Source: a virus. From it: a DNA stretch of 64,000 nt. The DNA lies in IMG/VR virus record IMGVR_UViG_3300045988_094716, positions 47,865 through 111,864 of that record. One strand, given 5' to 3'. The translations under genes and the position numbers were made by a program. Shown here in pieces: positions 2,650 through 63,729 of this stretch (its first letter is position 1; the number at the start of each line of letters is the position of its first letter). A model generated the notes under the pieces. The model ran no database searches and was not told the origin of the DNA. It worked only from the letters and a program-made list of their open reading frames with translations.

Positions 2650-2892
2650 ATGTGGGATTTAATGGGGAACAATTATTCAGAAGTATACGGTATTGGATAT
2701 GCTTTACTGAATGGAATTTCAGCTGGGTTTTATGTGAGCGTCATGTATAAGAATCTTGGAAATGAAATTTACTTCTATTATCTTGATGATGCTCCTTATG
2801 GAGAACTCAATGATAATACCAAAAATAAAATTGAGGATATTATCTATGATGACCTTAACAAGCGTCATATTTTTGGGTTTGGGGAGGACTGA
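2650..2892 (+). CDS. hypothetical protein (80 aa)
   Basis: ORF with RBS. Confidence 0.5.
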   Translation: MWDLMGNNYSEVYGIGYALLNGISAGFYVSVMYKNLGNEIYFYYLDDAPYGELNDNTKNKIEDIIYDDLNKRHIFGFGED

Positions 2893-2894
2893 TT

Positions 2895-3149
2895 ATGTGG
2901 GATCTGAGGGAAGTTCACGCTTGTTTTGATGGTGAAGGTTGGGTTTGGAATGAATCTTTTCATCACAAGAATGTGTTCGTAGGTGAGAATGAAGATCCGA
3001 AAGAAATCTTTTGGCAGGAATGTCAGATGTTCTTCCTTCAGGATTATCTGAGCAAGTGTGAGATTGTGGATGTTAACGGCGGTGATATTTTGGAACTTCA
3101 GCTGAAAGATTCTGGTGAGCCGGTTCTTGCTATAGTGATTGCAGAGTAA
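2895..3149 (+). CDS. hypothetical protein (84 aa)
   Basis: ORF with GGGGAGG RBS. Confidence 0.5.
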   Translation: MWDLREVHACFDGEGWVWNESFHHKNVFVGENEDPKEIFWQECQMFFLQDYLSKCEIVDVNGGDILELQLKDSGEPVLAIVIAE

Positions 3150-3161
3150 AGGAGAATAAAA

Positions 3162-3422
3162 ATGTTGCTTTTTAATGATGTCTTGGATGACTGCATTGTA
3201 ATTGTTAAGGATGATAACGGTAACAGCAGAGTTATTTCTGGCAGTGCTGACTCCATGCTTTATGACTGGTGGCACGAATGTAATTATGTGTCAAGTAATG
3301 ATTCTTTGGTTGTTTACGCTGCTTGTTTTGGAGTGGAAGTGAAATGTAAAACGTTCGGAGAATATATGAAAATGATTGATAAGATTGCCGGAAGCTGTGA
3401 TGGAATTGAAAGGGAAGAATGA
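3162..3422 (+). CDS. hypothetical protein (86 aa)
   Basis: ORF with AAGGAG RBS. Confidence 0.5.
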   Translation: MLLFNDVLDDCIVIVKDDNGNSRVISGSADSMLYDWWHECNYVSSNDSLVVYAACFGVEVKCKTFGEYMKMIDKIAGSCDGIEREE

Positions 3423-3425
3423 GTT

Positions 3426-3698
3426 ATGACGCGGTTTTATCTTAATGCGGGTGCTCTTGACCGTTGGATGCACCAGAATAAAGCACAATACACTGGTGCT
3501 TATGTTGAAGGTGTTTTAGTCGATAGCTTTGTTGTTGAAACAAAGCGTGGTGTTGCAGCCATCTACGAACACGCTCTGAATGAGTGGACAAGCAACTATT
3601 ATGTTGAGTTCACCGATTATAAGAATGGCTTTAAGAACGGAGAGGTCGATAAGATTTGGTCTGATTGGTATACTTTTGAAGAAAAGGCTAGTGCATAA
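3426..3698 (+). CDS. hypothetical protein (90 aa)
   Basis: ORF, weak RBS. Confidence 0.45.
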   Translation: MTRFYLNAGALDRWMHQNKAQYTGAYVEGVLVDSFVVETKRGVAAIYEHALNEWTSNYYVEFTDYKNGFKNGEVDKIWSDWYTFEEKASA

Positions 3699-3711
3699 GA
3701 GGTGAGTGAAT

Positions 3712-3897
3712 ATGAATGATGTTGAAAAGATTATCAATGCCTTGAAGGACGAATATTTTTATTGCCAAGATATTGCTTACACTGCGCAAAAAGAAGGCGA
3801 TGAAGAGAGAATGACATGGTATTATGGCAAAGCAACCGGAATTAAAAAGTCTATTGAAACAATCAAAAAAATGAAGAATTACGGAATTATTTTATAA
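3712..3897 (+). CDS. hypothetical protein (61 aa)
   Basis: ATG after GAGGTGAGTG RBS. Confidence 0.45.
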   Translation: MNDVEKIINALKDEYFYCQDIAYTAQKEGDEERMTWYYGKATGIKKSIETIKKMKNYGIIL

Positions 3898-3913
3898 AAG
3901 GGAGATTTTAGAT

Positions 3914-4780
3914 ATGACAAACTTATATTGCTACGATAATGAAATTATAAAATGGACTTACGGCGATAACCTGTATTGCTTACATATTCAGCACGACGAC
4001 GTTGCAGACAATAACCCTCGTTGGTGGGACGACCACGATTCTGTGATGGCTTGTTTCCATCCTCGTTACCGTCTTGGTGATAAGGTCGATGCGAGTACGG
4101 CAGAAGAATTTTGGAATAATCTGGTTTACAAGTATTGCTCTTATGAAGAGATTCTGGATGCGCTTTTCAATATGAAACTGGAAGATACTTGTGTTGTTGT
4201 TGATGAAAATTATAGCGACGAAAAACGATATGCCATCTGCGGTATTGGAACTCTTTATGATGAAAAAGTTTCCGAAGGCCCGATATATGTTGGATTGAAA
4301 CATAACGAAATTGCTACATATGTTGCTGGTGAATTTTCTATTCGTGATTGTCAGATTCTTCTTGATAAGCACATCGCATGGCTTCCTCTTTGGCTACATG
4401 ACCATTCTGGTTTGTCTATGGATTGCGATACGCGGTTCAGAGGTTCATGGGATGATAGTAATGTTGGTTGGATTGTGACAGCTATTACGGATGGTTCGGA
4501 TAATACCAAAAATGAAGCAGAACGAATTATGCGTGATGAGGTAAAGACTTATAGCGATTATCTTTCCGGTGAGAATTACGGCTACACGCTTTATCGAGAA
4601 GATCACGGAAAATGGAAGGAGATTGACAGAGCATTTGGATTTATCGGTTCTGATGTGTTTGAAAACGGTATCACATACAGCGCTGGTTGTGGCCTTGAAA
4701 CAGCATTGAAGGAAGATCGATGCCGTATCGGTGACGCTGAGAAGGTTGTGACAGTCACTTATAACTTTGATAAATGTTGA
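3914..4780 (+). CDS. hypothetical protein (288 aa), acidic, possible antirestriction-like
   Basis: long ORF with RBS; no motif I can assign firmly. Confidence 0.55.
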   Translation: MTNLYCYDNEIIKWTYGDNLYCLHIQHDDVADNNPRWWDDHDSVMACFHPRYRLGDKVDASTAEEFWNNLVYKYCSYEEILDALFNMKLEDTCVVVDENYSDEKRYAICGIGTLYDEKVSEGPIYVGLKHNEIATYVAGEFSIRDCQILLDKHIAWLPLWLHDHSGLSMDCDTRFRGSWDDSNVGWIVTAITDGSDNTKNEAERIMRDEVKTYSDYLSGENYGYTLYREDHGKWKEIDRAFGFIGSDVFENGITYSAGCGLETALKEDRCRIGDAEKVVTVTYNFDKC

Positions 4781-9582: not shown

Positions 9583-10401
9583 ATGAGCGCAGTTGTTGAA
9601 AGAAAAGAAGAACAGATACCTAAATTGATTTATTTTAATCCGAAACCTTCTGTTCCGGCTAAAAAACGTGGTGTTACAAAAAGTAAGCAGAAGCGTAAGC
9701 GTAATATTTCTCCAATTAGAAGCTTGGATGATGTTCAAATGATTTCTGAATACTTCTGGGATAAAAAGCAATATCGCAATTGGTGTCTATTTAATGTCGG
9801 TATTGCAACTGGGTTGCGTGCTAGTGACTTGCTTAAATTGAAAGTTTCTGATATGTCTTACTGTCTTTATAATGGAAAAATTGAGGTGGTTGAGGACGCA
9901 GGAACTTGCATCGTCGAAGAAAAGACTTCTAAATATCGTGAAATCATTCTTACTCCAGAAGCGAGGGACATCGTTGAAACATACATCAAAATTGCGAAAC
10001 TTGGATATGATGATTGGATGTTTCCATCTCGACAGGGGAGCTGGAAAAAGTCTTTGAGAACAAATGGTGGATATGGGAAAACCGGTATTCTTCATATCGC
10101 AGAACCCAAAAATGCCGGTGATCCTATTGATGTTGATCATTTTGCTCGTATTCTTCGTAACGTTGGTAAAGATTTAGGTCTTAATTATAAAATTGCATCT
10201 CATTCTTGCCGCAAAACGTTTGGTTATCGTGAAATGTGTCTTAATAAGGATGATAATCAGGCATTGTCTTGGATTCAGGGTCAGTTGAATCATAGTAGTC
10301 AGGACATTACATTACGGTACGTTGGTTTTGATGAGGATAAGGCAAAAGAATATTATAAGAAGACTTTTTATGGTGTGAATACACACAGCTTGGAAGACTG
10401 A
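9583..10401 (+). CDS. tyrosine-type site-specific recombinase (short, about 272 aa)
   Basis: GLRASDLLKL (Arg box), HSCRKTF...LNHSSQDITLRYV (HxxR ... Y) catalytic motifs. Confidence 0.7.
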   Translation: MSAVVERKEEQIPKLIYFNPKPSVPAKKRGVTKSKQKRKRNISPIRSLDDVQMISEYFWDKKQYRNWCLFNVGIATGLRASDLLKLKVSDMSYCLYNGKIEVVEDAGTCIVEEKTSKYREIILTPEARDIVETYIKIAKLGYDDWMFPSRQGSWKKSLRTNGGYGKTGILHIAEPKNAGDPIDVDHFARILRNVGKDLGLNYKIASHSCRKTFGYREMCLNKDDNQALSWIQGQLNHSSQDITLRYVGFDEDKAKEYYKKTFYGVNTHSLED

Positions 10402-10409
10402 GGTGTGTG

Positions 10410-11084
10410 ATGGCTGATACTTATATTAAAATCTGGGATACTTACGAGAGCTACTTTGAACCCCTTAGTGCTGCTGAGGTGGGGCGTCTGGTACTGGCGA
10501 TGATGAAATATAAATCGTCTGGAACGGATCCTGAACTCAACGGAAATGAGCGGTATGTGTGGCCTGCTGTAAAGAGAGATTTGGATAAAGATGCCGAATA
10601 CATCGAAGGTAAGAGAATTTCTGGTAAAGCTGGTGGCTCATCAAGCAAGCGTAAGCAAAACGAAGCAAACGCAAGCAAAACAAAGCTAGAAAAAGAAAAA
10701 GAGAAAGAAAAAAATAAGATATCGTCTTCGTCTTGTGATGAGACGACAACGACGAAATCCATCGAGGATGTATTTCGAGAGGATATTGGGAAGCTCGGTG
10801 TTGCAGGGAAGAAGGCTTTAGCAGAATATGTTGAGCGCATGGGCAATGAACTTGTGCTTGCTGTGATTGGAAAGTGTTCTGATCTCGGCGGTAGTACATG
10901 GGCTTATGTGCGAAAAGCTCTGGATGAAGCAGAATCTCTTGGTTGCAAGACTGTTGATGACTATCGCCGGGCTTGTCCGATAGGGAGTGGTCGCAACACA
11001 AAAGTGACTAGGGAGATGCCTAGCGGTGGTGATTGGCTGAAGAACGCGACGCATAGACGTCCGCTGATAAAGAAAGACGCTTAA
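10410..11084 (+). CDS. DnaD-domain / replisome organizer-like protein
   Basis: C-terminal LAEYVERMGNELVLAVIGK...STWAYVRKALDEAESLG resembles DnaD C-domain; KEKEKEKEK low-complexity linker. Confidence 0.45.
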   Translation: MADTYIKIWDTYESYFEPLSAAEVGRLVLAMMKYKSSGTDPELNGNERYVWPAVKRDLDKDAEYIEGKRISGKAGGSSSKRKQNEANASKTKLEKEKEKEKNKISSSSCDETTTTKSIEDVFREDIGKLGVAGKKALAEYVERMGNELVLAVIGKCSDLGGSTWAYVRKALDEAESLGCKTVDDYRRACPIGSGRNTKVTREMPSGGDWLKNATHRRPLIKKDA

Positions 11085-11107
11085 AAGTAATATTTTAGGA
11101 GGAGCTT

Positions 11108-11299
11108 ATGGGTAATTGGTACAAAGTATCAGGCCAATATGATGACGGTTGTAAGGTGTATAAGAAAGACTATATCGTCTTTGCAGAGTCCAGCTCTGAT
11201 GCAGAACAAAAGATTTTTCACTTGAAATTGCCGTATGATTGTTCTTTTTTTCCTTGTACGGTAACTCAGTTGATTAAAAATATTATTTATGAATTTTAA
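11108..11299 (+). CDS. hypothetical protein (63 aa)
   Basis: ORF with AGGAGG RBS. Confidence 0.45.
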   Translation: MGNWYKVSGQYDDGCKVYKKDYIVFAESSSDAEQKIFHLKLPYDCSFFPCTVTQLIKNIIYEF

Positions 11300-11328
11300 T
11301 AAAAGAGTGATTTTAGGAGATTCAAATT

Positions 11329-11730
11329 ATGGGATTGTTACTCGGTTTGGGTTTACTTGGCGCAGCATTTGGAATTGATGCAGTAAAGCAAGCACCGTTT
11401 GATAAGGCGTATCGCCGTCTGGAAAACGAATGGGGGACTTGTACATCGGAAGAGAGTAAGCGATGTGATGCTCTGAAGTATGCTGTGCAGAATGGTTTAT
11501 GTTTCGAGGATGAAAAGAAGCCTGTGATTGAGTGGCAGAAGCTGAGAGATCTTCAGTGGAAGTATCAGCTGGCTGGTATCTCTTGGCCGAGAGAATCTGC
11601 GATTCGAGATGTATGCCGGTTGGCAGCTCGTGACCGTGGATTTGAGTATAAAGGGTATCTGCGAAATACATTGACATTTGGTTACATCACTGATCCGAAA
11701 AATATTTGCAAACTTGGCATCGTAGATTGA
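11329..11730 (+). CDS. hypothetical protein (133 aa)
   Basis: ORF with AGGAG RBS. Confidence 0.5.
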   Translation: MGLLLGLGLLGAAFGIDAVKQAPFDKAYRRLENEWGTCTSEESKRCDALKYAVQNGLCFEDEKKPVIEWQKLRDLQWKYQLAGISWPRESAIRDVCRLAARDRGFEYKGYLRNTLTFGYITDPKNICKLGIVD

Positions 11731-11744
11731 GAGGAGATTTGAAA

Positions 11745-12050
11745 ATGAATAACGTTCGTAGAAGAGATATTAAGCAGACCATTGACCGTTTTGATTCCAT
11801 CCGTAAGAGGCTGGATGAGCTTGTGTCTGAGGTCGAAAGTGTAAGATCCGATGTTGAGTATATCCAGTGGGAAGAAGAAGAGTATCGTGATAACATGCCG
11901 GAGAATCTGCAGGGGAGTGAGCGGTATGACAAGGCAGACGAGGCTTGTACAAAACTGTCCGATGCTATGGATGCTCTAGATGATATGATTAGTGCTCTGG
12001 ATTTTGACTTTGGTGATGTGACCACATCTCTGGAGGAAGCGATGGAATGA
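11745..12050 (+). CDS. hypothetical acidic protein (101 aa)
   Basis: ATG after GAGGAG RBS. Confidence 0.5.
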   Translation: MNNVRRRDIKQTIDRFDSIRKRLDELVSEVESVRSDVEYIQWEEEEYRDNMPENLQGSERYDKADEACTKLSDAMDALDDMISALDFDFGDVTTSLEEAME

Positions 12051-21753: not shown

Positions 21754-21945
21754 TTAAGACATTTTCTTCCTCCGAAAATGCCCTGAGCGGGGCTGACAGC
21801 CGGGAAAGACCGGCAATATATGCCAAGGTGCTGCAAATGGGAGACAGGGCGAGCCCAAACCTCGCTGTGGAAACACATGCGGTTTCGAATACCGTCCTTG
21901 GCACCAGAGCCCGAACGTCCATCTATTAGATATTGGAGGCATTTT

Positions 21946-22842
21946 ATGAAAAAGATTGATAAACTTACAAAAGAAGAAATTGAGCAAGCTTTTGAGGAAA
22001 GCAAAAGTTAGGCTGCGGTTGCGGAGAAGCTTGGATATTCAAAAAATGGTGGAAGTACGAATCATGTACTTCAAGATTATGCAAAAGCGCACAATATAAA
22101 TACTTCTCATTTCACTGGGCAGGGCTAGAATAAAGGGAACGTGGATTTGTCTCGTTTTAAAAATGGAAGACGAATAAAGGATTTAAAATCCGCACTTCTT
22201 TCTATCAAACCATATAAGTGTGAATGTTGTGGAAACTCTGAATAGATGGGCAAACAGATTCCATTGCAAGTACATCATATTGACGGAAACCACATAAATA
22301 ATGAGTTAGACAATCTTCAGTTGCTTTGCCCGAATTGTCATGCACAAACTGATAATTGGTGCAAAAATAATATCGGAAAATACAAGACCGTGAGCGATAA
22401 AGATTTTCTTGATGCGTTAAAAACAACATCAACTATAAATGCTGCTCTTGAAAAAGTTGGAATTTATTATTCTGCGAGAGTGTGGTATGACAAAGCAAGG
22501 CAACTAATGATTGAAAACAACGTAACTCAAATTCCACGTGAAAAGGTTATCCGTGAGAAAAAAGAAAGAAAAAGAAGAAAAATCAAATATTGTTCAATAT
22601 GCGGAAAAGAAATGAGTCCGCGTGCAAAAGGATGTCTCTGTAAAAATTGTTTAAAAGGAAATCCTTACAGTAAACGCATTGATTTTCCTGATAAAGAGCA
22701 ATTGAGGGTAGACACAGCTTCAATGTCCTTTCAAGATGTTGGAAGAAAATATGGAGTATCAGGAAATGCAATACGTAAATGGTGCAAGCATTATGATTTA
22801 CCATACAGAAAATTAGATATGAACAGTAAAGAGGAAAATTAA
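21946..22842 (+). pseudogene. HNH endonuclease gene; a single frame interrupted only by three TAG codons. Pseudogene or amber-recoded gene
   Basis: frame open for 299 codons except TAG at 22009, 22126 and 22243; HNH core LQVHHIDGNHINNELDNLQLLCPNCH lies downstream. Confidence 0.6.
22246..22842 (+). CDS. HNH endonuclease catalytic portion (ATG-initiated segment after third TAG)
   Basis: HHIDGN...N...CPNCH HNH motif. Confidence 0.55.
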   Translation: MGKQIPLQVHHIDGNHINNELDNLQLLCPNCHAQTDNWCKNNIGKYKTVSDKDFLDALKTTSTINAALEKVGIYYSARVWYDKARQLMIENNVTQIPREKVIREKKERKRRKIKYCSICGKEMSPRAKGCLCKNCLKGNPYSKRIDFPDKEQLRVDTASMSFQDVGRKYGVSGNAIRKWCKHYDLPYRKLDMNSKEEN

Positions 22843-22855
22843 CGTTGATAAAAAA

Positions 22856-22882
22856 GAAGCTGTAAAAAAAAAATACAGCTTC
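22856..22882 (+). terminator. 9-bp perfect hairpin GAAGCTGTA-(A)9-TACAGCTTC, possible bidirectional terminator
   Basis: inverted repeat directly after HNH gene stop. Confidence 0.4.
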
Positions 22883-22889
22883 TATATAT

Positions 22890-22977
22890 GCCGCAGTGAT
22901 GGAGTGACATACATTTCCCGCTTAAACCGGGACGCCTGAAATATGGATCGTGGGTTTGAATCCCACCTGCGGCACCA
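22890..22977 (+). tRNA. tRNA-Leu (anticodon TAA), long variable arm, CCA encoded
   Basis: acceptor GCCGCAG/CTGCGGC; anticodon arm TCCCG-CTTAAAC-CGGGA; T arm GTGGG-TTTGAAT-CCCAC. Confidence 0.75.
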
Positions 22978-22980
22978 TAT

Positions 22981-23054
22981 CGAGAACGTGGTGTAATGGT
23001 AACACGCCTGCTTTGGGAGCAGGAGTTGCAGTTCAAATCTGACGTTTTCGACCA
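22981..23054 (+). tRNA. tRNA-Pro (anticodon TGG) with imperfect T-stem, possibly degenerate
   Basis: anticodon arm CCTGC-TTTGGGA-GCAGG; acceptor CGAGAAC/GTTTTCG; ends ACCA. Confidence 0.45.
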
Positions 23055-23149
23055 GTTGGTTTTCCAACATGCTTTTCATAAAATACATTTCCTATTATTC
23101 TTGGCTCTCCAAAAATGGAGCAATAGGACACAGCAAGCCAAGTATATAA

Positions 23150-23223
23150 TGCGTCGTAGCCAAGCGGTTAAGGCAGGGTCCTTTGAAGTCCCGATTGCGA
23201 AAGTTCGATTCTTTCCGGCGCAA
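23150..23223 (+). tRNA. tRNA-Gln (anticodon TTG)
   Basis: Gln-type D arm GCC-AAGCGGTTAA-GGC; anticodon loop CTTTGAA; T arm GAAAG-TTCGATT-CTTTC; acceptor TGCGTCG/CGGCGCA. Confidence 0.6.
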
Positions 23224-23230
23224 TTTATAT

Positions 23231-23315
23231 GCCACAGTGGTGGAATTGACCTACACATCTATTTTAGGGGTAGACGCCGAAAGGCTTGCGAGTTTGAGTC
23301 TCGCCTGTGGCACCA
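23231..23315 (+). tRNA. tRNA-Leu (anticodon TAG), long variable arm, CCA encoded
   Basis: acceptor GCCACAG/CTGTGGC; anticodon arm TCTAT-TTTAGGG-GTAGA; T arm GCGAG-TTTGAGT-CTCGC. Confidence 0.75.
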
Positions 23316-23421
23316 CGGTCATAGAATGGTTGCGTACCGTTTATTGATCTCCTTTGATTGCCACTATTATTCCCGGCTCGCCAGTGATGGTGCAGTAGTG
23401 CTTTGTAAGCTGGGTTTTCAT

Positions 23422-23496
23422 GCAGCGGTCGTACAACGGCTAGTACATCAGCCTTCCAAGTCGATGGAGTGGGTTCGATTCCCATTCGCTGCTCCA
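23422..23496 (+). tRNA. tRNA, probably Gly (anticodon TCC), with an A:C mismatch in the anticodon stem
   Basis: acceptor GCAGCGG/TCGCTGC; D arm GTAC-AACGGCTA-GTAC; loop CTTCCAA; T arm GTGGG-TTCGATT-CCCAT; CCA encoded. Confidence 0.5.
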
Positions 23497-23677
23497 ATCT
23501 CGTATGGGTAGGATCTTTAGCAGTCAGATCCTGCTGCGCCTGTGCGAGATACCACCCCGAAAGGGGCTAACGAAATTATCCATGTACGTTATTCTCGGCT
23601 CGCTCGAAAGAGTGCAGCGTGCCTTTGCAAGCCGAGCATCCCAGCCTAGTGATGCCAGTTGCTAGGTTGGTTCTTAT

Positions 23678-23753
23678 GCGACTGTAGTTCAATTGGCAGA
23701 GCGTCAGATTTCCAATCTGAATGTTGCGGGATCGTCCCCCGTCAGTCGCTCCA
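23678..23753 (+). tRNA. tRNA-Gly (anticodon TCC), CCA encoded
   Basis: acceptor GCGACTG/CAGTCGC; anticodon arm TCAGA-TTTCCAA-TCTGA; 76 nt. Confidence 0.75.
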
Positions 23754-23980
23754 CACGCAGCCCCTGACGCTGCACCGGTTACTCAGAGCCGAAAGGAACC
23801 TATATGTTACGACATGGTTGCCAAGAGTGATCATATTGGAACGCGACGTAGCTTGGATAGTGAGAATTAAATTCTGAGGTATACGGCTGGATAGCTTAAT
23901 GGTAAAAGCGCTCGGAAACACCGAGAGATGAGGTTCGATCCCTCCACTGGCATCGCGCCGACGAAAGTTGGCGGTTATAT

Positions 23981-24056
23981 GGAATAGTAGCTCAGTTGGT
24001 TAGCGCCGACAACTTATAATTGTCAGACGCGAGTTCAAATCTCGACTATTCCACCA
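23981..24056 (+). tRNA. tRNA-Ile (anticodon TAT, reads ATA), CCA encoded
   Basis: acceptor GGAATAG/CTATTCC; anticodon arm GACAA-CTTATAA-TTGTC; T loop TTCAAAT. Confidence 0.65.
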
Positions 24057-24197: not shown

Positions 24198-24281
24198 GTG
24201 AAACATTATGGAAGTATTTGCGAGATTGGTGGTTCTAAGATTGAGCCTGTCTCGTGTATCACTGGTGGTTCACCTTGTTAG
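24198..24281 (+). pseudogene. C5-MTase fragment carrying the catalytic PC of motif IV (GTG start, ends GGSPC-TAG), out of frame with the rest of the gene
   Basis: ...IEPVSCITGGSPC in frame A; canonical PCQDLSIAGKR is restored only by removing 4 nt (TAGC, 24279-24282). Confidence 0.5.
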
Positions 24282-24870
24282 CCAAGACCTTTCTATTGCC
24301 GGTAAGCGGGCAGGTTTGGCTGGAGAACGGTCTGGTCTATTTATGGAAATGATTCGTGTGATAAAGGAAATGAGGGATGCCACCAATGGAGAATGTCCAA
24401 AATTTGCAATCTGGGAAAATGTCCCAGGAGCCTTCTCTTCCAACAAAGGAGAAGACTTTAGATGTGTCTTGGAAGAATTTGCACGCATTGTCGAACCAAG
24501 TGTTTCAGTTCCTCGACCTTCGGGAAGAGAATGTAAGTGGGCAAAAGCTGGAGCAATCGCCGGAAACGGATGGTCCTTGGCGTGGAGATTATTCGACGCT
24601 AGTGGTTGGGGTGTTCCCCAGCGTAGAAAACGTCTCGCGCTTGTCATGGACCTTAGAGGACAATGTGCCGGAAAAGTATTATTTGAGCAAACGGGCGTGT
24701 CAGGGGATCTTGACAAGAGCATCAAGACGTGGAAAACCATTGCCCGACCTTCTGAAGGATGCACTGCAGGAGATGATTCATTGGTGGGAGATGAAAGATC
24801 CTACACTTTGAAGATTCGTTCTGGCTGCGCAGGGGGGGGGGTAAAGGAGCACTCGTGCAGAATGAATTGA
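24208..24870 (+). CDS. DNA (cytosine-5)-methyltransferase segment with motifs IV (partial), VI (ENV) and VIII (QRRKRL); carries a G10 tract near its 3' end
   Basis: SQDLSIAGKRAGL, FAIWENVPG, GVPQRRKRLALV. Confidence 0.6.
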   Translation: MEVFARLVVLRLSLSRVSLVVHLVSQDLSIAGKRAGLAGERSGLFMEMIRVIKEMRDATNGECPKFAIWENVPGAFSSNKGEDFRCVLEEFARIVEPSVSVPRPSGRECKWAKAGAIAGNGWSLAWRLFDASGWGVPQRRKRLALVMDLRGQCAGKVLFEQTGVSGDLDKSIKTWKTIARPSEGCTAGDDSLVGDERSYTLKIRSGCAGGGVKEHSCRMN

Positions 24871-24935: not shown

Positions 24936-25691
24936 TTGGAAAAAGAAACTAGTTTACATAATTTAAAACAAAATATTTCCACAGCGGGATTTGAAAGCCA
25001 TAGTCAGGATGCTCGATACACTCAGCAAGGTAATACAAGCCCAGCTTGTACGGCTCAATGGGGTACTGGTGGTAATAATATGCCGCTTGTCGCTGAAAAG
25101 AAAGCCTTTGCTATGCAGCGTATTGGTGAATATAAGGAAAACGAACAGGCCAGCACAATGAAATCTCGTGATTATAAAGATGCAACTGATCTTGTAGTTG
25201 AAGAGAAAGAGGTGAAATGTGCTGGATTTCCACTTGGATTTAGAGCAGAAAATACGAAATGCTACGATGAAGTGGCTACTACGCTTTGCAATGGTACGCG
25301 GCCTGGATTTACTACTGGATGTGTTCTCAATTGGATTGTTCGCCGCTTGACTCCTGTCGAGTGTGAACGGTTACAGGGTTTTCCTGATGGATGGACCGAT
25401 ATTGGCGAGTGGGTTGACGAGAATGGTAAAAAGCACAAGCCAGCTGATTCTCCTCGGTACAAGGCACTCGGTAATTCAATCGCTTTGCCTCAGTGGTATT
25501 GGATTTTCCAGAAAATGAAGCCGTATATCGGTGAAAATCCTACGCTTGGCAGTCTTTTCGATGGGATTGGTGGCTTTCCGCTTGTCTTTGAAAGTACGTA
25601 TGGTGATGGTACTGCTATCTGGGGATCTGAAATCGAACCGTTCTGCGTTGCAGTAACTAAGAAGCATTTTCCAGAAAAGCAAGGAGGATAA
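24936..25691 (+). CDS. C5-MTase segment: target-recognition region + motifs IX/X, followed by motifs I-III at its C-terminus (circular permutation); TTG start
   Basis: RRLTPVECERLQGFPDGWT...YKALGNSIALP (IX/X), then LFDGIGGF...SEIEPFCVAVTKKHFPE (I-III); AAGGAGGG RBS. Confidence 0.6.
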   Translation: MEKETSLHNLKQNISTAGFESHSQDARYTQQGNTSPACTAQWGTGGNNMPLVAEKKAFAMQRIGEYKENEQASTMKSRDYKDATDLVVEEKEVKCAGFPLGFRAENTKCYDEVATTLCNGTRPGFTTGCVLNWIVRRLTPVECERLQGFPDGWTDIGEWVDENGKKHKPADSPRYKALGNSIALPQWYWIFQKMKPYIGENPTLGSLFDGIGGFPLVFESTYGDGTAIWGSEIEPFCVAVTKKHFPEKQGG

Positions 25692-28616: not shown

Positions 28617-28665
28617 TTTGTTTTAGCCTTAGCTATACAATACAGAATATATAAGGAGTTTAGTT

Positions 28666-28959
28666 ATGCAGAATACTCTTGAATATACCGCTTATAATGG
28701 CATGAAATTTTACATTGTCTACATCGAAGCGCTTGAAAAGGAACCTGAAGAAGACTCTCCGATGATGTCTATTGTGTTTACTACGCATCCTGAGATTATT
28801 GCAGAAGCTAAAGCCGACGCGGAATGCGATGGTGGTGCTGTTCCGGTAGGGTGTAAAGACCTTCTGGTTAATAGTGTGGATAACATCACCCGTCAGTTGG
28901 ATTATGTTGCTCATGCAGTTGAAACGGGCGATCCGTGGTATGAGTGTTTGAAAGTTTAA
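28666..28959 (+). CDS. hypothetical acidic protein (97 aa)
   Basis: ORF with AAGGAG RBS. Confidence 0.45.
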   Translation: MQNTLEYTAYNGMKFYIVYIEALEKEPEEDSPMMSIVFTTHPEIIAEAKADAECDGGAVPVGCKDLLVNSVDNITRQLDYVAHAVETGDPWYECLKV

Positions 28960-28992
28960 TAAAAGAAAAGATTTAGAGAGGAATTTACATAT

Positions 28993-30141
28993 ATGGCTAT
29001 GATTCGTAAGGCATCTGCTGTTCGTAAGAAGCTTCATATGCTGATTTATGGCGAACAGGGAACTGGTAAGTCTCGTACTGCTATGCAGCTGTGCTATTTG
29101 AAGAATGCAGACGGTAAGCCGTTCCGTGTTCTGTATTTGGATACCGAAAATGGTTCTATTGATAATTACACCGAGGAGCTGGAAGCCAATGGTGTGAATC
29201 CTGATAATCTGTTGATTGTTTACACCCAGTCTCTGGCAGAAGTTCAGGATTATATCAAGATGGTTACCAACGATGAGGATATCGAGGATGAGAATGGAGA
29301 TGTTTATCTGGATGCAGATGGTAAGCCGTTCCGTGCAGACGCTCTGGTTGTTGACTCCGCTTCCATCCTCAAGATGACTGCTACCCAGGGCCTCACCGCC
29401 TTCTCGCAGAAGCGTGCCAAGGTTAAGGCCGCATCTCAGGGTCTGACCGGTGATGAAAAGGCAGTTAAGATTGAGGGTGCTGGCATGGAGCTCAAGGATT
29501 TCAATACCCTGAACTTCAAGGGTCAGTCTCTGATTTTGGATCTGAATGCATCTGGTGTAAACTACATCGTTGTTTGCCGAGAGAAGGACGAGAAGCATAC
29601 TAAGGTTGTGAATGGTTCTATCGTAAGTGAGCCTACTGGTCGTAAGATTCCTGATGGGTTTGCTGGTCAGGAGTACAACGTTGATACTGAGTTCCGCCTG
29701 TATTTTCAGGATGGTCAGCAGCTCGCTTTCTTCGATAAGGATCGTACCGGTATGCATAAGGGCGGTGAGGTCGTTGAGGATCTGACCCTGCTTGAGTATC
29801 AGGATATTATCTCTAGTAGCGCAAAGAATCGGGAGAACGTCATCAAGAACGGCTTAAACGATGCTGTTAAGACTGAGGTTAAGCTGAGTATGCGTGACCT
29901 TGGTATCGAAAACGATGAGCCGGATGATGTTCCGGCAGATAAGAGTTCCGATAGTAAAGAGCCTTCTATGGATGACATCAAGGCAAAGCTGAACGACCTG
30001 ATTGCTTCCGCTTCTCCTGTGAAGAAGAGCGCAGCACAGAAGGCTGTTAAGGCGGCTGGCCTGTCTACTGCATTCCGTTCTATGACTGATATTGAGGAAC
30101 TGAAGAAGGTCGCCGCAGTCATGGAGAAGGAACTGGCTTAA
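28993..30141 (+). CDS. Sak4-like / AAA_24-family RecA-like ATPase
   Basis: Walker A GEQGTGKS and LYLDTENG motif. Confidence 0.6.
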   Translation: MAMIRKASAVRKKLHMLIYGEQGTGKSRTAMQLCYLKNADGKPFRVLYLDTENGSIDNYTEELEANGVNPDNLLIVYTQSLAEVQDYIKMVTNDEDIEDENGDVYLDADGKPFRADALVVDSASILKMTATQGLTAFSQKRAKVKAASQGLTGDEKAVKIEGAGMELKDFNTLNFKGQSLILDLNASGVNYIVVCREKDEKHTKVVNGSIVSEPTGRKIPDGFAGQEYNVDTEFRLYFQDGQQLAFFDKDRTGMHKGGEVVEDLTLLEYQDIISSSAKNRENVIKNGLNDAVKTEVKLSMRDLGIENDEPDDVPADKSSDSKEPSMDDIKAKLNDLIASASPVKKSAAQKAVKAAGLSTAFRSMTDIEELKKVAAVMEKELA

Positions 30142-46633: not shown

Positions 46634-46981
46634 ATGAGTAATTCGATGAATCGAGAAGACCGGCGCAGAGAACAGCGTAAGGCACGAATCCTTGCCCGGC
46701 GAATCAAGAAGGCTGGTGGCCCCGACTTTCTGGCTGGAATGCCAGTTGAAGAGTGGGAGCCAAAGATTGGTGATGAGGTCACCATTAAGGTAAAGAGGAT
46801 TCAAGGCAAGAAAGATTTCTTCAAGATGAGTCCGCAGTATCAGGACTTTATCAATAGCCTTGAAGACGGAAAGCCTTACAAAATCACCAGTACCGGCATG
46901 AAGGGTCAGGTTTACGGCATTGACGCACATCCTTATTTCCAGATTTGGAAGGGCGATATGGAACCCTATAAGGAGTCCTAA
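46634..46981 (+). CDS. hypothetical basic protein (115 aa)
   Basis: ORF with AAGGAA RBS. Confidence 0.45.
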   Translation: MSNSMNREDRRREQRKARILARRIKKAGGPDFLAGMPVEEWEPKIGDEVTIKVKRIQGKKDFFKMSPQYQDFINSLEDGKPYKITSTGMKGQVYGIDAHPYFQIWKGDMEPYKES

Positions 46982-47208
46982 TGAGGATGTACTTCAGGAC
47001 GGATTATAAAGAGTGGGGTCCGGCAGAAGCCACTTTGCAGAAAGGACACTGGTATAAGGTTCTTTGTGATGCTGGCGACTTCTACATAATTGACAACAGA
47101 CCAGAAAGTAACAAGTGTGGTCTGCGACTAGGAGAAATATCGTTTGTTGACAAAGAAGATCTCGAAGATGACGTATATGTCGTGACTGGCAAGAGTGAAA
47201 AACTTTAG
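46981..47208 (+). CDS. hypothetical protein (75 aa)
   Basis: ORF with AAGGAG RBS. Confidence 0.45.
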   Translation: MRMYFRTDYKEWGPAEATLQKGHWYKVLCDAGDFYIIDNRPESNKCGLRLGEISFVDKEDLEDDVYVVTGKSEKL

Positions 47209-47862: not shown

Positions 47863-47873
47863 AGGAGGATTAA

Positions 47874-56460: not shown

Positions 56461-56829
56461 ATGGCGAAATACATTCCTGAAAATGCTCGATGGGCGGACA
56501 TCACTCCTTTGCTAGATGAGATTGACAGTGGCTTAAAACATATGCGCTTTTATGACGAACGAGATGACTATTCCGATTTCCTAGCAGAAGAACGCGAAGA
56601 CCTATTAGGGCTTCCGAAAGCAGAATCTAATACAGTTCGTGCTATTGCACACTGGGATCACTGGCCGTGCGATGACGAAGAAGACTCTGTATATCATTGT
56701 TCTAATTGCAACGAACAGTTTTACGAAGATTTTTTCTATCCGCGCGAGACACCTTGTATCGGCTCTGAGAAATACAAGCCTTTTAAGTATTGTCCCTATT
56801 GTGGGGCAAAAATGGAGGGCATTAAATGA
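56461..56829 (+). CDS. hypothetical protein with C-terminal zinc ribbon (122 aa)
   Basis: CSNCN...CPYCG. Confidence 0.4.
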   Translation: MAKYIPENARWADITPLLDEIDSGLKHMRFYDERDDYSDFLAEEREDLLGLPKAESNTVRAIAHWDHWPCDDEEDSVYHCSNCNEQFYEDFFYPRETPCIGSEKYKPFKYCPYCGAKMEGIK

Positions 56830-57329
56830 ACTACGCTAAAATTGTTCCCTGTGATATAGCAAATGGCGAAGGGGTGCGCGTCACACTTTTCGTGCAGGGT
56901 TGTGATCATCATTGTCCCGGCTGTCAGAATCCTACTACATGGGACCCGAATGGTGGTCAGCCATTCACAGATGAAACGCTTGATAAAATTGTAGATTTAC
57001 TTCGACCTGATTATATTCAGGGGCTTACGCTTACTGGTGGAGATCCACTCTTGCCGGAGAATAGAGAAGTTGTTAAGAAAATCGTCCATCGTGTGTGGAC
57101 TGAATTTCTAAGCAAAAAAGACGTCTGGCTCTGGACTGGATACAAGTGGGAAGACTTATGGAACCAAGATGGACTTGTGGCTGACATTCTTGCGGATATC
57201 AACGTCCTTGTAGATGGTCCTTTTATTGAAGCAGAAAAAGATATCTCACTTCCATATATGGGAAGTAAGAACCAACGAGTAATTGATATTAAATGGAGTC
57301 TTGGATATAAAGAGCCAACCCTTTGGTAG
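56826..57329 (+). CDS. nrdG: anaerobic ribonucleotide reductase activating protein NrdG (radical SAM); one of the few genes here ending in TAG
   Basis: CDIANGEGVRVTLFVQGCDHHCPGCQN. Confidence 0.85.
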   Translation: MNYAKIVPCDIANGEGVRVTLFVQGCDHHCPGCQNPTTWDPNGGQPFTDETLDKIVDLLRPDYIQGLTLTGGDPLLPENREVVKKIVHRVWTEFLSKKDVWLWTGYKWEDLWNQDGLVADILADINVLVDGPFIEAEKDISLPYMGSKNQRVIDIKWSLGYKEPTLW

Positions 57330-57354
57330 ACTCCAGAAGAGAAAGGAAAATAAT

Positions 57355-62562: not shown

Positions 62563-63729
62563 ATGATAAGACGTAAAGATAATAATGGCAAAGTTTTAAA
62601 AGACGGCGAGAGCCAGAGAAAGGATGGGAGATACCAATATAGATGGACAAACAAACTTGGAAAACGCTCAATAATATACGCCACTTCACTTAAAGAATTG
62701 AGAGAAAAAGAAGCTGAAATCCAAGAAAAACTTAATTTGGGTATAACATCTGCTTCAAAAATCACAGTGTACCAATTAGCAAAAAGACATCTCGAAGAAA
62801 CAAAACTTACTATTAGGCCAAGCAGCTATAAAACAAAATCGCAGAATTTGAAAATCTTTCAGAATCACCTAATTGGGGAAATGAATGCAACTGATATTTT
62901 AGTGCGAGATGTAAAACAATTTGCACGAGAATTGGATAACGAAGGATATTGTTATACAACAATCAGAGATGTCATGTCTTTAGCTAGACCGGCATTTCAA
63001 GAAATGTTTGATGAGAATATAATTCCTAGAAATCCATTCGTTTTTAAATTAAATACAGTTGTCAAATGTGACTCAAAAGAAAAAGAAATATTAACAGAAG
63101 AGCAGTATCAAAATCTGATCAAGTTCATGAAATCTAGTCGAGTATATAAAAGGCATGTTGGCATGGTGATGCTTTTGCACGAGACAGGACTTCGAGCAGG
63201 AGAATTATGCGGGCTAACAAAAAAGTCATTTGATTTTGATAATAACACTGTTACTATATCTCATCAGATGGTGTACGATGGAAAGAGCGGCGGGCTGTAT
63301 TTAGCACCTACAAAAACAGAAAGTGGGATAAGGACTATCCCATTATCTAAAGACGCCATCATTGCTTTTGAAGAAGCGGTAAAACAACGTCCGATTGTAA
63401 AAGCAGAGAGAATAATAGATGGGCAAGCCGACTTCTTGTTTATAGCAAAAACTGGAAGGCCCTATACGAATAAAAACCTTGTTAGAATTTTTGAAGGACT
63501 AATCAAAGCCTATAATAGTTGCCATGATGAACCATTGCCTGAAGTCACTGCCCATAGTATGCGTCACGAATATTGTACACGGCTTGTCAAAGCCAAGATG
63601 GATGTTAAATCGGTTCAATACCTCATGGGACATTCGTCGCCCGATATAACCTTGAAAGTGTATACTCATATCTTAAAAGAAGAGACCGAAGCAGAGGCAA
63701 TCAAACAGTTTAATAGGATTGTTTCCTAA
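62563..63729 (+). CDS. int: tyrosine-type site-specific integrase (388 aa)
   Basis: catalytic HSMRHEYCTRL...LMGHSSPDITLKVYTHI; N-terminal arm-binding-like domain. Confidence 0.9.
   Translation: MIRRKDNNGKVLKDGESQRKDGRYQYRWTNKLGKRSIIYATSLKELREKEAEIQEKLNLGITSASKITVYQLAKRHLEETKLTIRPSSYKTKSQNLKIFQNHLIGEMNATDILVRDVKQFARELDNEGYCYTTIRDVMSLARPAFQEMFDENIIPRNPFVFKLNTVVKCDSKEKEILTEEQYQNLIKFMKSSRVYKRHVGMVMLLHETGLRAGELCGLTKKSFDFDNNTVTISHQMVYDGKSGGLYLAPTKTESGIRTIPLSKDAIIAFEEAVKQRPIVKAERIIDGQADFLFIAKTGRPYTNKNLVRIFEGLIKAYNSCHDEPLPEVTAHSMRHEYCTRLVKAKMDVKSVQYLMGHSSPDITLKVYTHILKEETEAEAIKQFNRIVS

Follow-up and report, generated by a model that had tools for sequence, protein, structure and literature searches.

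In-frame TAG codons at tryptophan positions of a phage homing-endonuclease gene and a candidate tRNA-Trp-derived amber suppressor

A 64,000-nt stretch of viral DNA (positions 47,865 to 111,864 of IMG/VR record IMGVR_UViG_3300045988_094716; in the following called the window) contains a gene for an HNH homing endonuclease whose reading frame is interrupted by three TAG codons. This raises the question if the gene is defunct, deliberately silenced or translated through its TAG codons and, in the latter case, which amino acid UAG would specify. A preliminary description, made from the sequence alone, had considered either recoding or suppression of amber codons in this phage, or silencing of the endonuclease by three TGG-to-TAG nonsense changes. 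We assign a probability of about 0.78 to the reading that the TAGs are working tryptophan codons, read by a phage-encoded suppressor tRNA with anticodon CUA that would derive from tRNA-Trp. We favour this reading because the TAGs fall on Trp columns of a protein under selection, TAG and TGG interchange between relatives, a homologue of tRNA-Trp with anticodon CUA co-occurs with the TAGs, and TAG is avoided as a terminator.

The endonuclease gene and its three TAG codons

Retranslation of 21946-22842 on the plus strand gave 299 codons, in which the only internal stops are TAG at 22009-22011, 22126-22128 and 22243-22245. The TAG-to-TAG distances are 117 nt each, and the frame closes with TAA at 22840-22842, all in agreement with the preliminary description of a single frame without internal TAA or TGA. 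The gene has the following features (handles beginning with L denote the loci and contigs compared):

21935..21939, plus strand: Shine-Dalgarno motif GGAGG, 6 nt before ATG 21946, read from the sequence
21946..22842, plus strand: HNH homing-endonuclease gene, full length (299 codons, the TAA counted); DNA-binding region at the N-terminus, HNH/zinc-finger core, helix-turn-helix-like region at the C-terminus
22009..22011, plus strand: TAG codon 22; TGG in L001 and L012; TAG in L008, L009, L010, L357 and L360
22126..22128, plus strand: TAG codon 61, motif GQG-W-NKG; TGG in L012; TAG in six of seven homologue DNAs; TGA in L046
22243..22245, plus strand: TAG codon 100, motif E-W-xGxxIPLxVHH; TGG in L012 and L360; TAG in the other five; TGA in L046, L019 and L020
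22273..22341, plus strand: HNH catalytic/zinc core (HHIDGNHINNELDNLQLLCPNCH), with a paired CxxC upstream at codons 92-95

The part downstream of the TAGs contains the HNH core LQVHHIDGNHINNELDNLQLLCPNCH. That this core is intact, as claimed before, is supported by a match to the Pfam model HNH (PF01844) with 22.6 bits at a cut-off of 21.4; the match to HNH_3 (PF13392), with 21.3 bits, lies under the cut-off of 24.8. Residues C92, C95, H110, H111, N119, N123, C128, C131 and H132 are near-invariant in the alignment of homologues. Full-length homologues found by database search have 285-310 amino acids. Standard-code gene callers on long contigs give only a C-terminal fragment of 198 amino acids (P0003), whose open reading frame (ORF) starts at ATG 22246. 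This internal ATG has no Shine-Dalgarno sequence, and since GGAGG precedes only ATG 21946, initiation at the latter is favoured. Reinitiation at ATG 22246 was rejected because the methionine after the third TAG varies among homologues.

The preliminary description had named tryptophan for the contexts of two of the TAGs, and the alignment of homologues places all three TAGs on Trp columns. The first column holds W, Y or F, and the second and third hold W in most of the more distant homologues. Many close homologues read 'Q' exactly where others have W or Y. In the closest of them (P0001, locus L001), inspection of the DNA revealed this 'Q' to be a TAG translated with genetic code 15, which assigns TAG to glutamine. 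L001 and the window share 93% nucleotide identity over the aligned 1.7 kb and 96% identity in the endonuclease protein, and codon 22 is TGG in L001. The endonucleases of L008 and L009 (98% identity) have the identical three TAGs, and in L010, whose protein has 50% amino-acid identity, these columns are likewise TAG. In L357, L359 and L360, as many as five of the six Trp columns are occupied by TAG (five of six Trp codons in L357), and L012 has TGG at all three columns of the window's TAGs. Taken over seven homologue DNAs with 45-96% amino-acid identity, 19 of 20 TAGs lie on five of the six Trp columns and none on a Gln column. The matching TAG columns recur in independent assemblies of the gene, and the seven homologues are free of frameshifts, TAA and TGA. 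The preliminary description had specified non-conserved residues at the TAG columns, together with frameshifts, as the mark of an ordinary pseudogene; neither was found.

The 117-nt spacing equals the distance between the conserved residues W22, W61 and W100 of this protein subfamily, and a homologue with TGA at the matching columns has spacings of 114 and 156 nt. A periodic or structural meaning of the spacing was rejected on these grounds. TGA stands at Trp columns equivalent to the TAG positions in homologues on other phage contigs, three times in L046 (9986-10500) and once each in L019 and L020 (at ~10334). ARAGORN also called an 81-nt tRNA with anticodon CUA, of doubtful quality, at L046:15967-16047.

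Selection on the gene was assessed by the Nei-Gojobori method. Codons 1-99 gave a proportion of nonsynonymous differences (pN) of 0.21-0.28 against a proportion of synonymous differences (pS) of 0.68-0.75, matching the region downstream of the TAGs, and dN/dS is ~0.1 in every segment. Purifying selection upstream of and between the TAGs argues that the whole frame is translated. Relaxed selection, frameshifts and mixed stop types, as expected of a pseudogene, are not seen, and judged by its sequence evolution the gene is not a pseudogene, being intact, translated and under purifying selection.

Its location differs among genomes. In the window, L008, L009 and L012, the gene is flanked by tRNA-Leu(CAA) and tRNA-Leu(UAA), in L010 by tRNA-Leu(UAG) and tRNA-Gly. 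Different slots of the tRNA array in different genomes indicate mobility, as expected of a homing-endonuclease gene. By its variable presence and position among collinear genomes, we class it as a free-standing homing-endonuclease gene. It is also exceptionally rich in TAG: three of its six Trp-position codons are TAG, whereas outside this gene the window has at most one among ~330 (Fisher p = 1.3e-5).

TAG in other genes and a candidate suppressor tRNA

As a terminator, TAG is nearly unused in the window, as had been noted before. A greedy set of 110 plus-strand ORFs ends with TAA in 56, TGA in 50 and TAG in four cases. Two of these four are artefacts of the endonuclease/tRNA region, and the real ones belong to nrdG and an ORF of 75 amino acids. 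Real TAG terminators thus number two among ~106 stops, one of them being TGG in a relative:

46981..47208, plus strand: 75-amino-acid ORF, the only other TAG-terminated ORF of the window; the next in-frame stop is a TGA 6 sense codons downstream
56826..57353, plus strand: nrdG (anaerobic ribonucleotide reductase activase; Pfam Radical_SAM/Fer4_12), with an apparent TAG stop at 57327-57329 (standard ORF 56826-57329)

The nrdG TAG aligns with TGG in L003, and both frames run on for 8 codons to the same TAA, ending in '...EPILWWTSEKKGK' in L003 and in '...EPTLW[TAG]TPEEKGK' in the window. No convincing in-frame TAG was found in any other long frame of the window. Four candidate recoded TAGs are present in these 64 kb, and one to three occur at the eight Trp columns scored in late genes. 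In late genes, TAG accounts for ~1% of the terminators, whichever class of genome within the family is considered.

These late genes belong to a module that lies upstream of the window on the opposite strand and comprises a 927-amino-acid YonO-like RNA polymerase, a second tRNA array, the large terminase (TerL) and structural genes. The family has more than 230 contigs of ~110-139 kb in IMG/VR. A tabulation of TAG in other conserved genes, as proposed in the preliminary description, covered 70 reference frames of at least 150 codons with 22,644 aligned columns, of which 303 have TGG, 559 CAG and 218 CAA as the majority codon. Every TAG column common to at least two contigs pairs with TGG or aromatic codons. 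The shared TAG/TGG columns are TerL 56, TerL 63 and five in late genes that are structural or of unknown function; in the aromatic column, the codons TTT, TGG, TAT and TTC occur. TAGs confined to one contig stand opposite TGG (4), CAG (4), GAG (2) and TAT (1). TAG and TGG interchange in both directions between the late genes of relatives. The shared columns thus do not align with Gln, as code 15 would predict, and show the exchange with TGG that TAG = Trp would predict.

In the large terminase, the true length of 616 amino acids is reduced to 533 by code-11 gene callers owing to a TAG at codon 56 or 63. Columns 56 and 63 are W in 103 of 103 and 98 of 104 database homologues, respectively, down to 65% identity. 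Five of the six non-W homologues read 'Q', which is probably a code-15 translation of TAG. Exact matches to the 533-amino-acid fragments were located on 112, 51 and 26 contigs, partly within scaffolds of 405-431 kb (405 kb in ERZ28599929 scaffold_2, 431 kb in ERZ28620147 scaffold_7). The gene is further interrupted by an insertion of ~395 nt in L235, L237, L241, L258, L259, L262, L263, L272 and L273 (match 10001-11994) and of ~1.26 kb in L191 (19340-20603). The flanking coding sequence is intact, and these insertions may be introns, inteins or endonuclease insertions.

The endonuclease gene itself is hosted by an early tRNA array:

21822..24056, plus strand: Leu-CAA, HNH endonuclease, Leu-UAA, Pro, Gln-UUG, Leu-UAG, Gly, Gly, Ile-UAU

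ARAGORN called eight tRNAs here, none with anticodon CUA, in line with the preliminary description; the suppressor of the relatives lies in the second, late array. The sole addition from the Rfam scan of the region was a degenerate element resembling a tRNA, with 5 nt in its anticodon loop, between tRNA-Gly and tRNA-Ile (23886-23955; 28.2 bits at a cut-off of 29 for the tRNA model), and tRNA-Leu(CAA) at 21822-21906 was called by ARAGORN and is missing from the Rfam scan. The 20 largest proteins of the window include neither a tryptophanyl-tRNA synthetase (TrpRS) nor a release factor.

The first CUA tRNA was found at L220:7983-8059, in the late array. L220 and L008 are parts of one contig, and the endonucleases of L008 and the window are 98% identical. 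ARAGORN called 65 CUA tRNAs over all loci; in other genomes, the Ser-[X]-Met slot of this tRNA holds a tRNA-Trp(CCA). CUA tRNAs whose D and T loops are unusual escaped ARAGORN and were recovered by the Rfam scan, direct reading and a pattern search, which yielded nine CUA and five CCA variants. That a sublineage with tRNA-Lys in the slot has TAGs without a suppressor was rejected, since ARAGORN had under-called the CUA tRNAs. In L215, L194 and L187, which are closest to the window genome, the CUA tRNA directly follows tRNA-Lys, and one such variant missed by ARAGORN scores 40 bits with the Rfam tRNA model. Of the relatives, L009 has ~96-97% nucleotide identity to the window over most of the 23 kb in common, and 85-94% in shorter blocks.

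The scan for a CUA tRNA that the preliminary description had suggested was thus successful in relatives, with 50 IMG/VR loci and 20 further assemblies. TAGs and the tRNA co-occur as follows:

CUA tRNA present: at least one TAG at the eight Trp columns in 48 of 50 late-region loci
tRNA-Trp(CCA) only: at least one TAG at the eight Trp columns in 0 of 8 loci
Neither tRNA: at least one TAG at the eight Trp columns in 2 of 16 loci (L200 and L202, one TAG each)

In all 20 of the additional assemblies (ENA and Logan) in which TerL codon 63 is TAG, the CUA tRNA lies ~1.7-1.9 kb upstream. This is also its distance from the large terminase gene in the relatives, where it lies in the late operon on the side of the YonO RNA polymerase. 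All three IMG/VR contigs with a TAG-bearing endonuclease carry it (variants 1, 5 and 2). The contig with the all-TGG endonuclease (L012) has no CUA tRNA, and its terminase gene has TGG.

Common to the variants are the acceptor stem GCGCCYR/UGGRCGU, G73 and a CCA end that is encoded, the latter being absent from two CCA variants as extracted; the CUA tRNA follows the pattern GCGCCYR...YUCUAAR...GGGCGUGCCA. The anticodon loops are CU-CUA-AA in the suppressor and CU-CCA-AA in tRNA-Trp, and the acceptor stems of the two differ only at pair 4-69. Slot, acceptor stem, G73 and anticodon arm are common to both, so that the CUA tRNA is judged to be a homologue of the phage tRNA-Trp(CCA) and probably derived from it; the tRNA-Gln(UUG) of the window is unrelated to it by sequence comparison. 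In the consensus cloverleaf, 13 of 21 pairs show compensatory double changes, and among the CUA variants the acceptor stem is invariant. Varying pairs combined with a fixed acceptor stem are in keeping with functional tRNAs in which the identity set located in the acceptor stem of tRNA-Trp is retained.

Some further observations were made on these tRNAs. The Ser-[X]-Met slot seems to be a hotspot of tRNA turnover, as it holds Trp, CUA, Lys or nothing depending on the genome. In L212 (7899-7973), the CUA tRNA is directly preceded by a copy of tRNA-Lys(UUU) in which a deletion has reduced the anticodon loop to 5 nt. The Rfam scan detected no theta/HDV-like ribozyme beside the suppressor. An exact-pattern scan of metagenome contigs with CUA variant 5 gave matches on three contigs. 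An unrelated large phage contig (L027:12161-12235; IMGVR_UViG_3300045988_163716, 219 kb) has a CUA tRNA with the anticodon arm of tRNA-Trp (GCGGUCUCUAAAACCGC), and Trp-derived amber suppressors may exist outside the SPbeta-like family to which the window belongs (see below).

Readings of UAG and their weight

We propose that the anticodon of a phage tRNA-Trp(CCA) changed to CUA while acceptor stem and G73 were kept, that the TrpRS of the host would charge this tRNA with Trp, and that UAG at codons 22, 61 and 100 of the endonuclease would be decoded as Trp by the tRNA from the late operon. Given TAG for TGG in the terminase and structural genes of relatives, the co-occurring tRNA(CUA), the avoidance of TAG as terminator and the evidence for selection, the recoding or suppression considered in the preliminary description is supported. 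Its other proposal, deliberate silencing by nonsense changes, survives in part: permanent silence is contradicted by the evidence, but translation conditional on expression of the suppressor agrees with it. TAG makes up 3-5 of the six Trp codons in the endonuclease versus ~0.3-2% of Trp codons elsewhere. The TAG-rich gene could thus act as a translational gate, such that the nuclease would not be made in the lysogen or in early infection until the late operon supplies the suppressor. Gating is suggested because the suppressor is located in the YonO-side late operon and the endonuclease in the early module on the other strand. In its widest form, the proposal is that a widespread SPbeta-like phage family of Firmicutes of the human gut (at least 230 IMG/VR contigs, a TAG-split terminase on ~190) runs a UAG-to-Trp code over a standard-code host by means of a tRNA-Trp-derived suppressor of the late operon, as a lysogeny-safe switch for homing endonuclease, packaging and structural genes. 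This we regard as reasonably probable, with less confidence than we place in the Trp reading of the endonuclease codons.

Several points weigh against these proposals. Insertion of Trp is deduced from alignments and tRNA ancestry, and an E. coli tRNA-Trp with anticodon CUA is charged mostly with Gln, since glutaminyl-tRNA synthetase (GlnRS) reads U35. For the window's own genome, we infer the suppressor from its relatives. Late expression of the tRNA, and with it the gating, is suggested by gene order. The association between tRNA and TAGs has a Fisher's exact p of 2e-14 with loci counted as independent despite shared ancestry. Seven singleton TAGs, each in one contig, stand on non-Trp codons (4 CAG, 2 GAG, 1 TAT) and may be real nonsense mutations or tolerated misincorporation. 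Three of the four CAG-to-TAG cases fall, unexplained, in one ClpP-like gene. This gene for a ClpP/head-maturation-protease-like protein (207 amino acids; L187:13871-14491) has a different CAG-to-TAG change in L224/L136, L267/L141 and L272/L126.

The first rival to be weighed is ordinary code 15, with TAG read as Gln and the location on Trp codons reflecting no more than an easy TGG-to-TAG transition. TAG-to-Gln is the sole amber reassignment of phages reported in the literature examined, gene callers already write Q in these genes, a few singleton TAGs align with CAG, and the mischarging of the E. coli tRNA would point the same way. But CAG-to-TAG is an equally easy change and Gln columns (CAG 559 plus CAA 218) outnumber those of TGG (303), yet shared TAGs occur only on TGG or aromatic columns. 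Together with the near-uniform W at the two TerL positions (103/103 and 98/104), the location of the endonuclease TAGs among the most conserved residues of the protein, and a CUA tRNA that resembles the phage tRNA-Trp rather than the phage tRNA-Gln, this makes the Gln reading unlikely. That the window stems from a defective prophage, in which the suppressor was lost or is not expressed so that TAG-bearing genes are truncated, we judge to be quite unlikely as well. The window's late array lies outside the compared sequence, and L200 and L202 have one TAG each without a detected CUA tRNA; against this, the tRNA is present in 23 of 23 other genomes (20 with the TAG at TerL codon 63, three with a TAG-bearing endonuclease), the same sequence occurs on two independent contigs (ENA and JGI) over the stretches compared, and the long genes of the window are free of frameshifts and other disruptions.

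A decaying or permanently silenced pseudogene, inactivated by three TGG-to-TAG changes, would be in keeping with the frequent decay of free-standing homing-endonuclease genes and with the 198-amino-acid C-terminal fragment that standard-code callers report. It is very improbable in view of TAG columns conserved at 50% amino-acid divergence, a dN/dS of ~0.1 upstream of and between the TAGs, seven homologues devoid of frameshift, TAA and TGA, and the presence of TAG also in the essential terminase gene. Similarly slight is the chance that UAG is rescued without a dedicated tRNA, be it by A-to-I editing of the mRNA, which would turn UAG into UIG, to be read as UGG, or because the normal tRNA-Trp reads UAG as a near-cognate codon. 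A change of UAG to UGG would also account for the Trp columns, and stop-loss editing of this kind is known in fungi. However, the TAG contexts lack a common motif or a TadA-like 'UACG' loop, and editing fails to explain the tight co-occurrence with the CUA tRNA and the absence of TAGs in genomes that have only tRNA-Trp(CCA). APOBEC-like G-to-A hypermutation and DNA base modification were likewise rejected on the evidence presented here.

The phage family and recoding in other systems

The window is identical to ENA ERZ28567821 scaffold_65 (26.2 kb compared) and to JGI Ga0169881_100093 (14.8 kb compared). It ends with excisionase and integrase genes (62563-63729), followed by host genes. The GC content is 60% in the host flank versus ~41% in the phage, and the three host genes flanking the integrase, the only ones considered, are intact and end with TAA, TAA and TGA. 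Early and replication genes of the window encode the DNA polymerase III alpha subunit, a RecD2-like helicase, a ligase, ThyX, NrdD/NrdG, RecJ, a primase and methylases; an RNA ligase gene adjoins the early tRNA array. The called late genes match the Pfam families YonO-like RdRP, YonK, YonJ, YonG, YonD, YonB, YomW and YomU, and these Yon/Yom matches identify the phage as SPbeta-like. From its gene content, the window covers the early half of a temperate prophage of the SPbeta-like kind, integrated in a high-GC gut bacterium.

In tblastn searches of GenBank phages, the terminase matched SPbeta yonF at ~26% and otherwise only SPbeta-like and other Firmicute phages, all at less than 30% identity; phAss-1 was not among the matches. 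Megablast against the GenBank phages gave two unannotated fragments of 84-85% identity and no close annotated phage. Among genome contigs, terminase relatives of 65-71% were found in a metagenome-assembled genome (MAG) of the Eubacteriales, in Anaerovorax and on a contig binned to a Bacteroidota MAG.

Further features of the family were noticed in passing. Similarity to C-5 cytosine DNA methylases extends over two ORFs in different frames, 24208-24870 and 24936-25691 (profile 72-131 and 269-323). L001 has a single gene of 440 amino acids (2810-4132) at this locus, and the methylase of the window may be frameshifted or split. An ATG ORF of 365 amino acids (28660-29757, minus strand) is antisense to the plus-strand genes 28666-28959 and 28993-30141; all other genes of the window appear to be on the plus strand. 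A gene for a ToxN-family toxin (type III toxin-antitoxin/abortive infection; L006:1114-1596, minus strand) is located ~4.5-5 kb upstream of the window start, inside the prophage and opposite in strand to its neighbours. Near the second tRNA array, late-operon endonuclease genes are variably present, namely a GIY-YIG gene and a 415-amino-acid RRXRR+HNH gene (L364:6021-6995; L365:3940-5187). In L373 (13803-20177; a 209-kb contig), a YonD-like gene is split by a mobile element with Mob_Pre, RepA_N and a serine recombinase. The GC mismatch between host and prophage (L002:11250-14678 versus the window) may explain the at least 14 phage tRNAs for A/U-ending codons.

The Bacillus phage SPbeta shares with the window family the Yon/Yom families, the yonF terminase and the temperate lifestyle, but the similarity is distant (~26%) and the host of the present family is a gut anaerobe. 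We know of no recoding reported for SPbeta. For phages with a code unlike that of their host, Borges et al. (bioRxiv 10.1101/2021.08.26.457843), in a survey of recoded gut phages, report to have observed only TAG-to-Gln and TGA-to-Trp, and TAG was treated as Gln by Cook et al., by Peters et al. (PMC9523058) and in the phAss-1 paper (Babkin et al. PMC10607447). A limited full-text search of the literature gave no report of UAG-to-Trp for phages or bacteria; the only case found is organellar, a 2026 preprint with 'UAG to Trp' in organelles of holoparasitic plants.

The code-15 gut phages (crAss-like, Lak, Garnet, Amethyst, phAss-1) likewise have in-frame TAG in conserved, mostly late genes and a phage CUA tRNA, do not use TAG as terminator, and a role in late-gene timing has been proposed for their recoding. 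Unlike in these phages, TAG here aligns with Trp, the tRNA appears to stem from tRNA-Trp, the phage is of the SPbeta-like temperate kind and recoding is very sparse. Because of this sparseness, long contigs are still assigned to code 11 by coding-density screens and by prodigal-gv. The code-4 phages with TGA-to-Trp, Jade, Agate and Topaz (Borges et al.), also have a stop codon read as Trp by a Trp-type suppressor tRNA. Their codon is UGA, however, which needs a change of wobble position 34 only (CCA to UCA), whereas UAG needs a change of position 35, an identity element for TrpRS.

The same UAG-to-Trp reassignment as proposed here is found in plastids of the Balanophoraceae, whose code is NCBI table 32 (TAG to Trp). 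There, it operates genome-wide in a tiny, extremely AT-rich organelle genome, while in the present case a virus would overlay it on its host by means of its own tRNA. The E. coli suppressor Su7 is a tRNA-Trp with the anticodon changed from CCA to CUA, a laboratory mutant that is charged mainly with Gln. In contrast, the evolutionary record here indicates Trp, and at least nine sequence variants of the tRNA have a fixed acceptor stem. Homing endonucleases of phage T4 such as I-TevI are translated with delay owing to an RNA hairpin over the ribosome-binding site. The late appearance of an endonuclease through a post-transcriptional block would be common to both systems, the block here consisting of 3-5 UAGs that would need the late suppressor.

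If true, the reading of UAG as Trp would be a third stop-codon reassignment in phages beside TAG-to-Gln and TGA-to-Trp. It would also, if true, provide a route of reassignment via the middle anticodon position, with a phage tRNA-Trp changing position 35 and keeping its acceptor-stem identity. Public protein sets contain annotation errors at these genes: under code 11 the terminase and others are split, and translation with code 15 puts Q in place of W. Recoding of a few codons escapes coding-density screens, and sparse recoding may be common. For genetic-code engineering, the CUA tRNA variants may provide natural scaffolds for amber suppression with Trp. For the phage family itself, the TAG-dense homing-endonuclease gene suggests a way in which a temperate phage may silence a nuclease until lytic growth.

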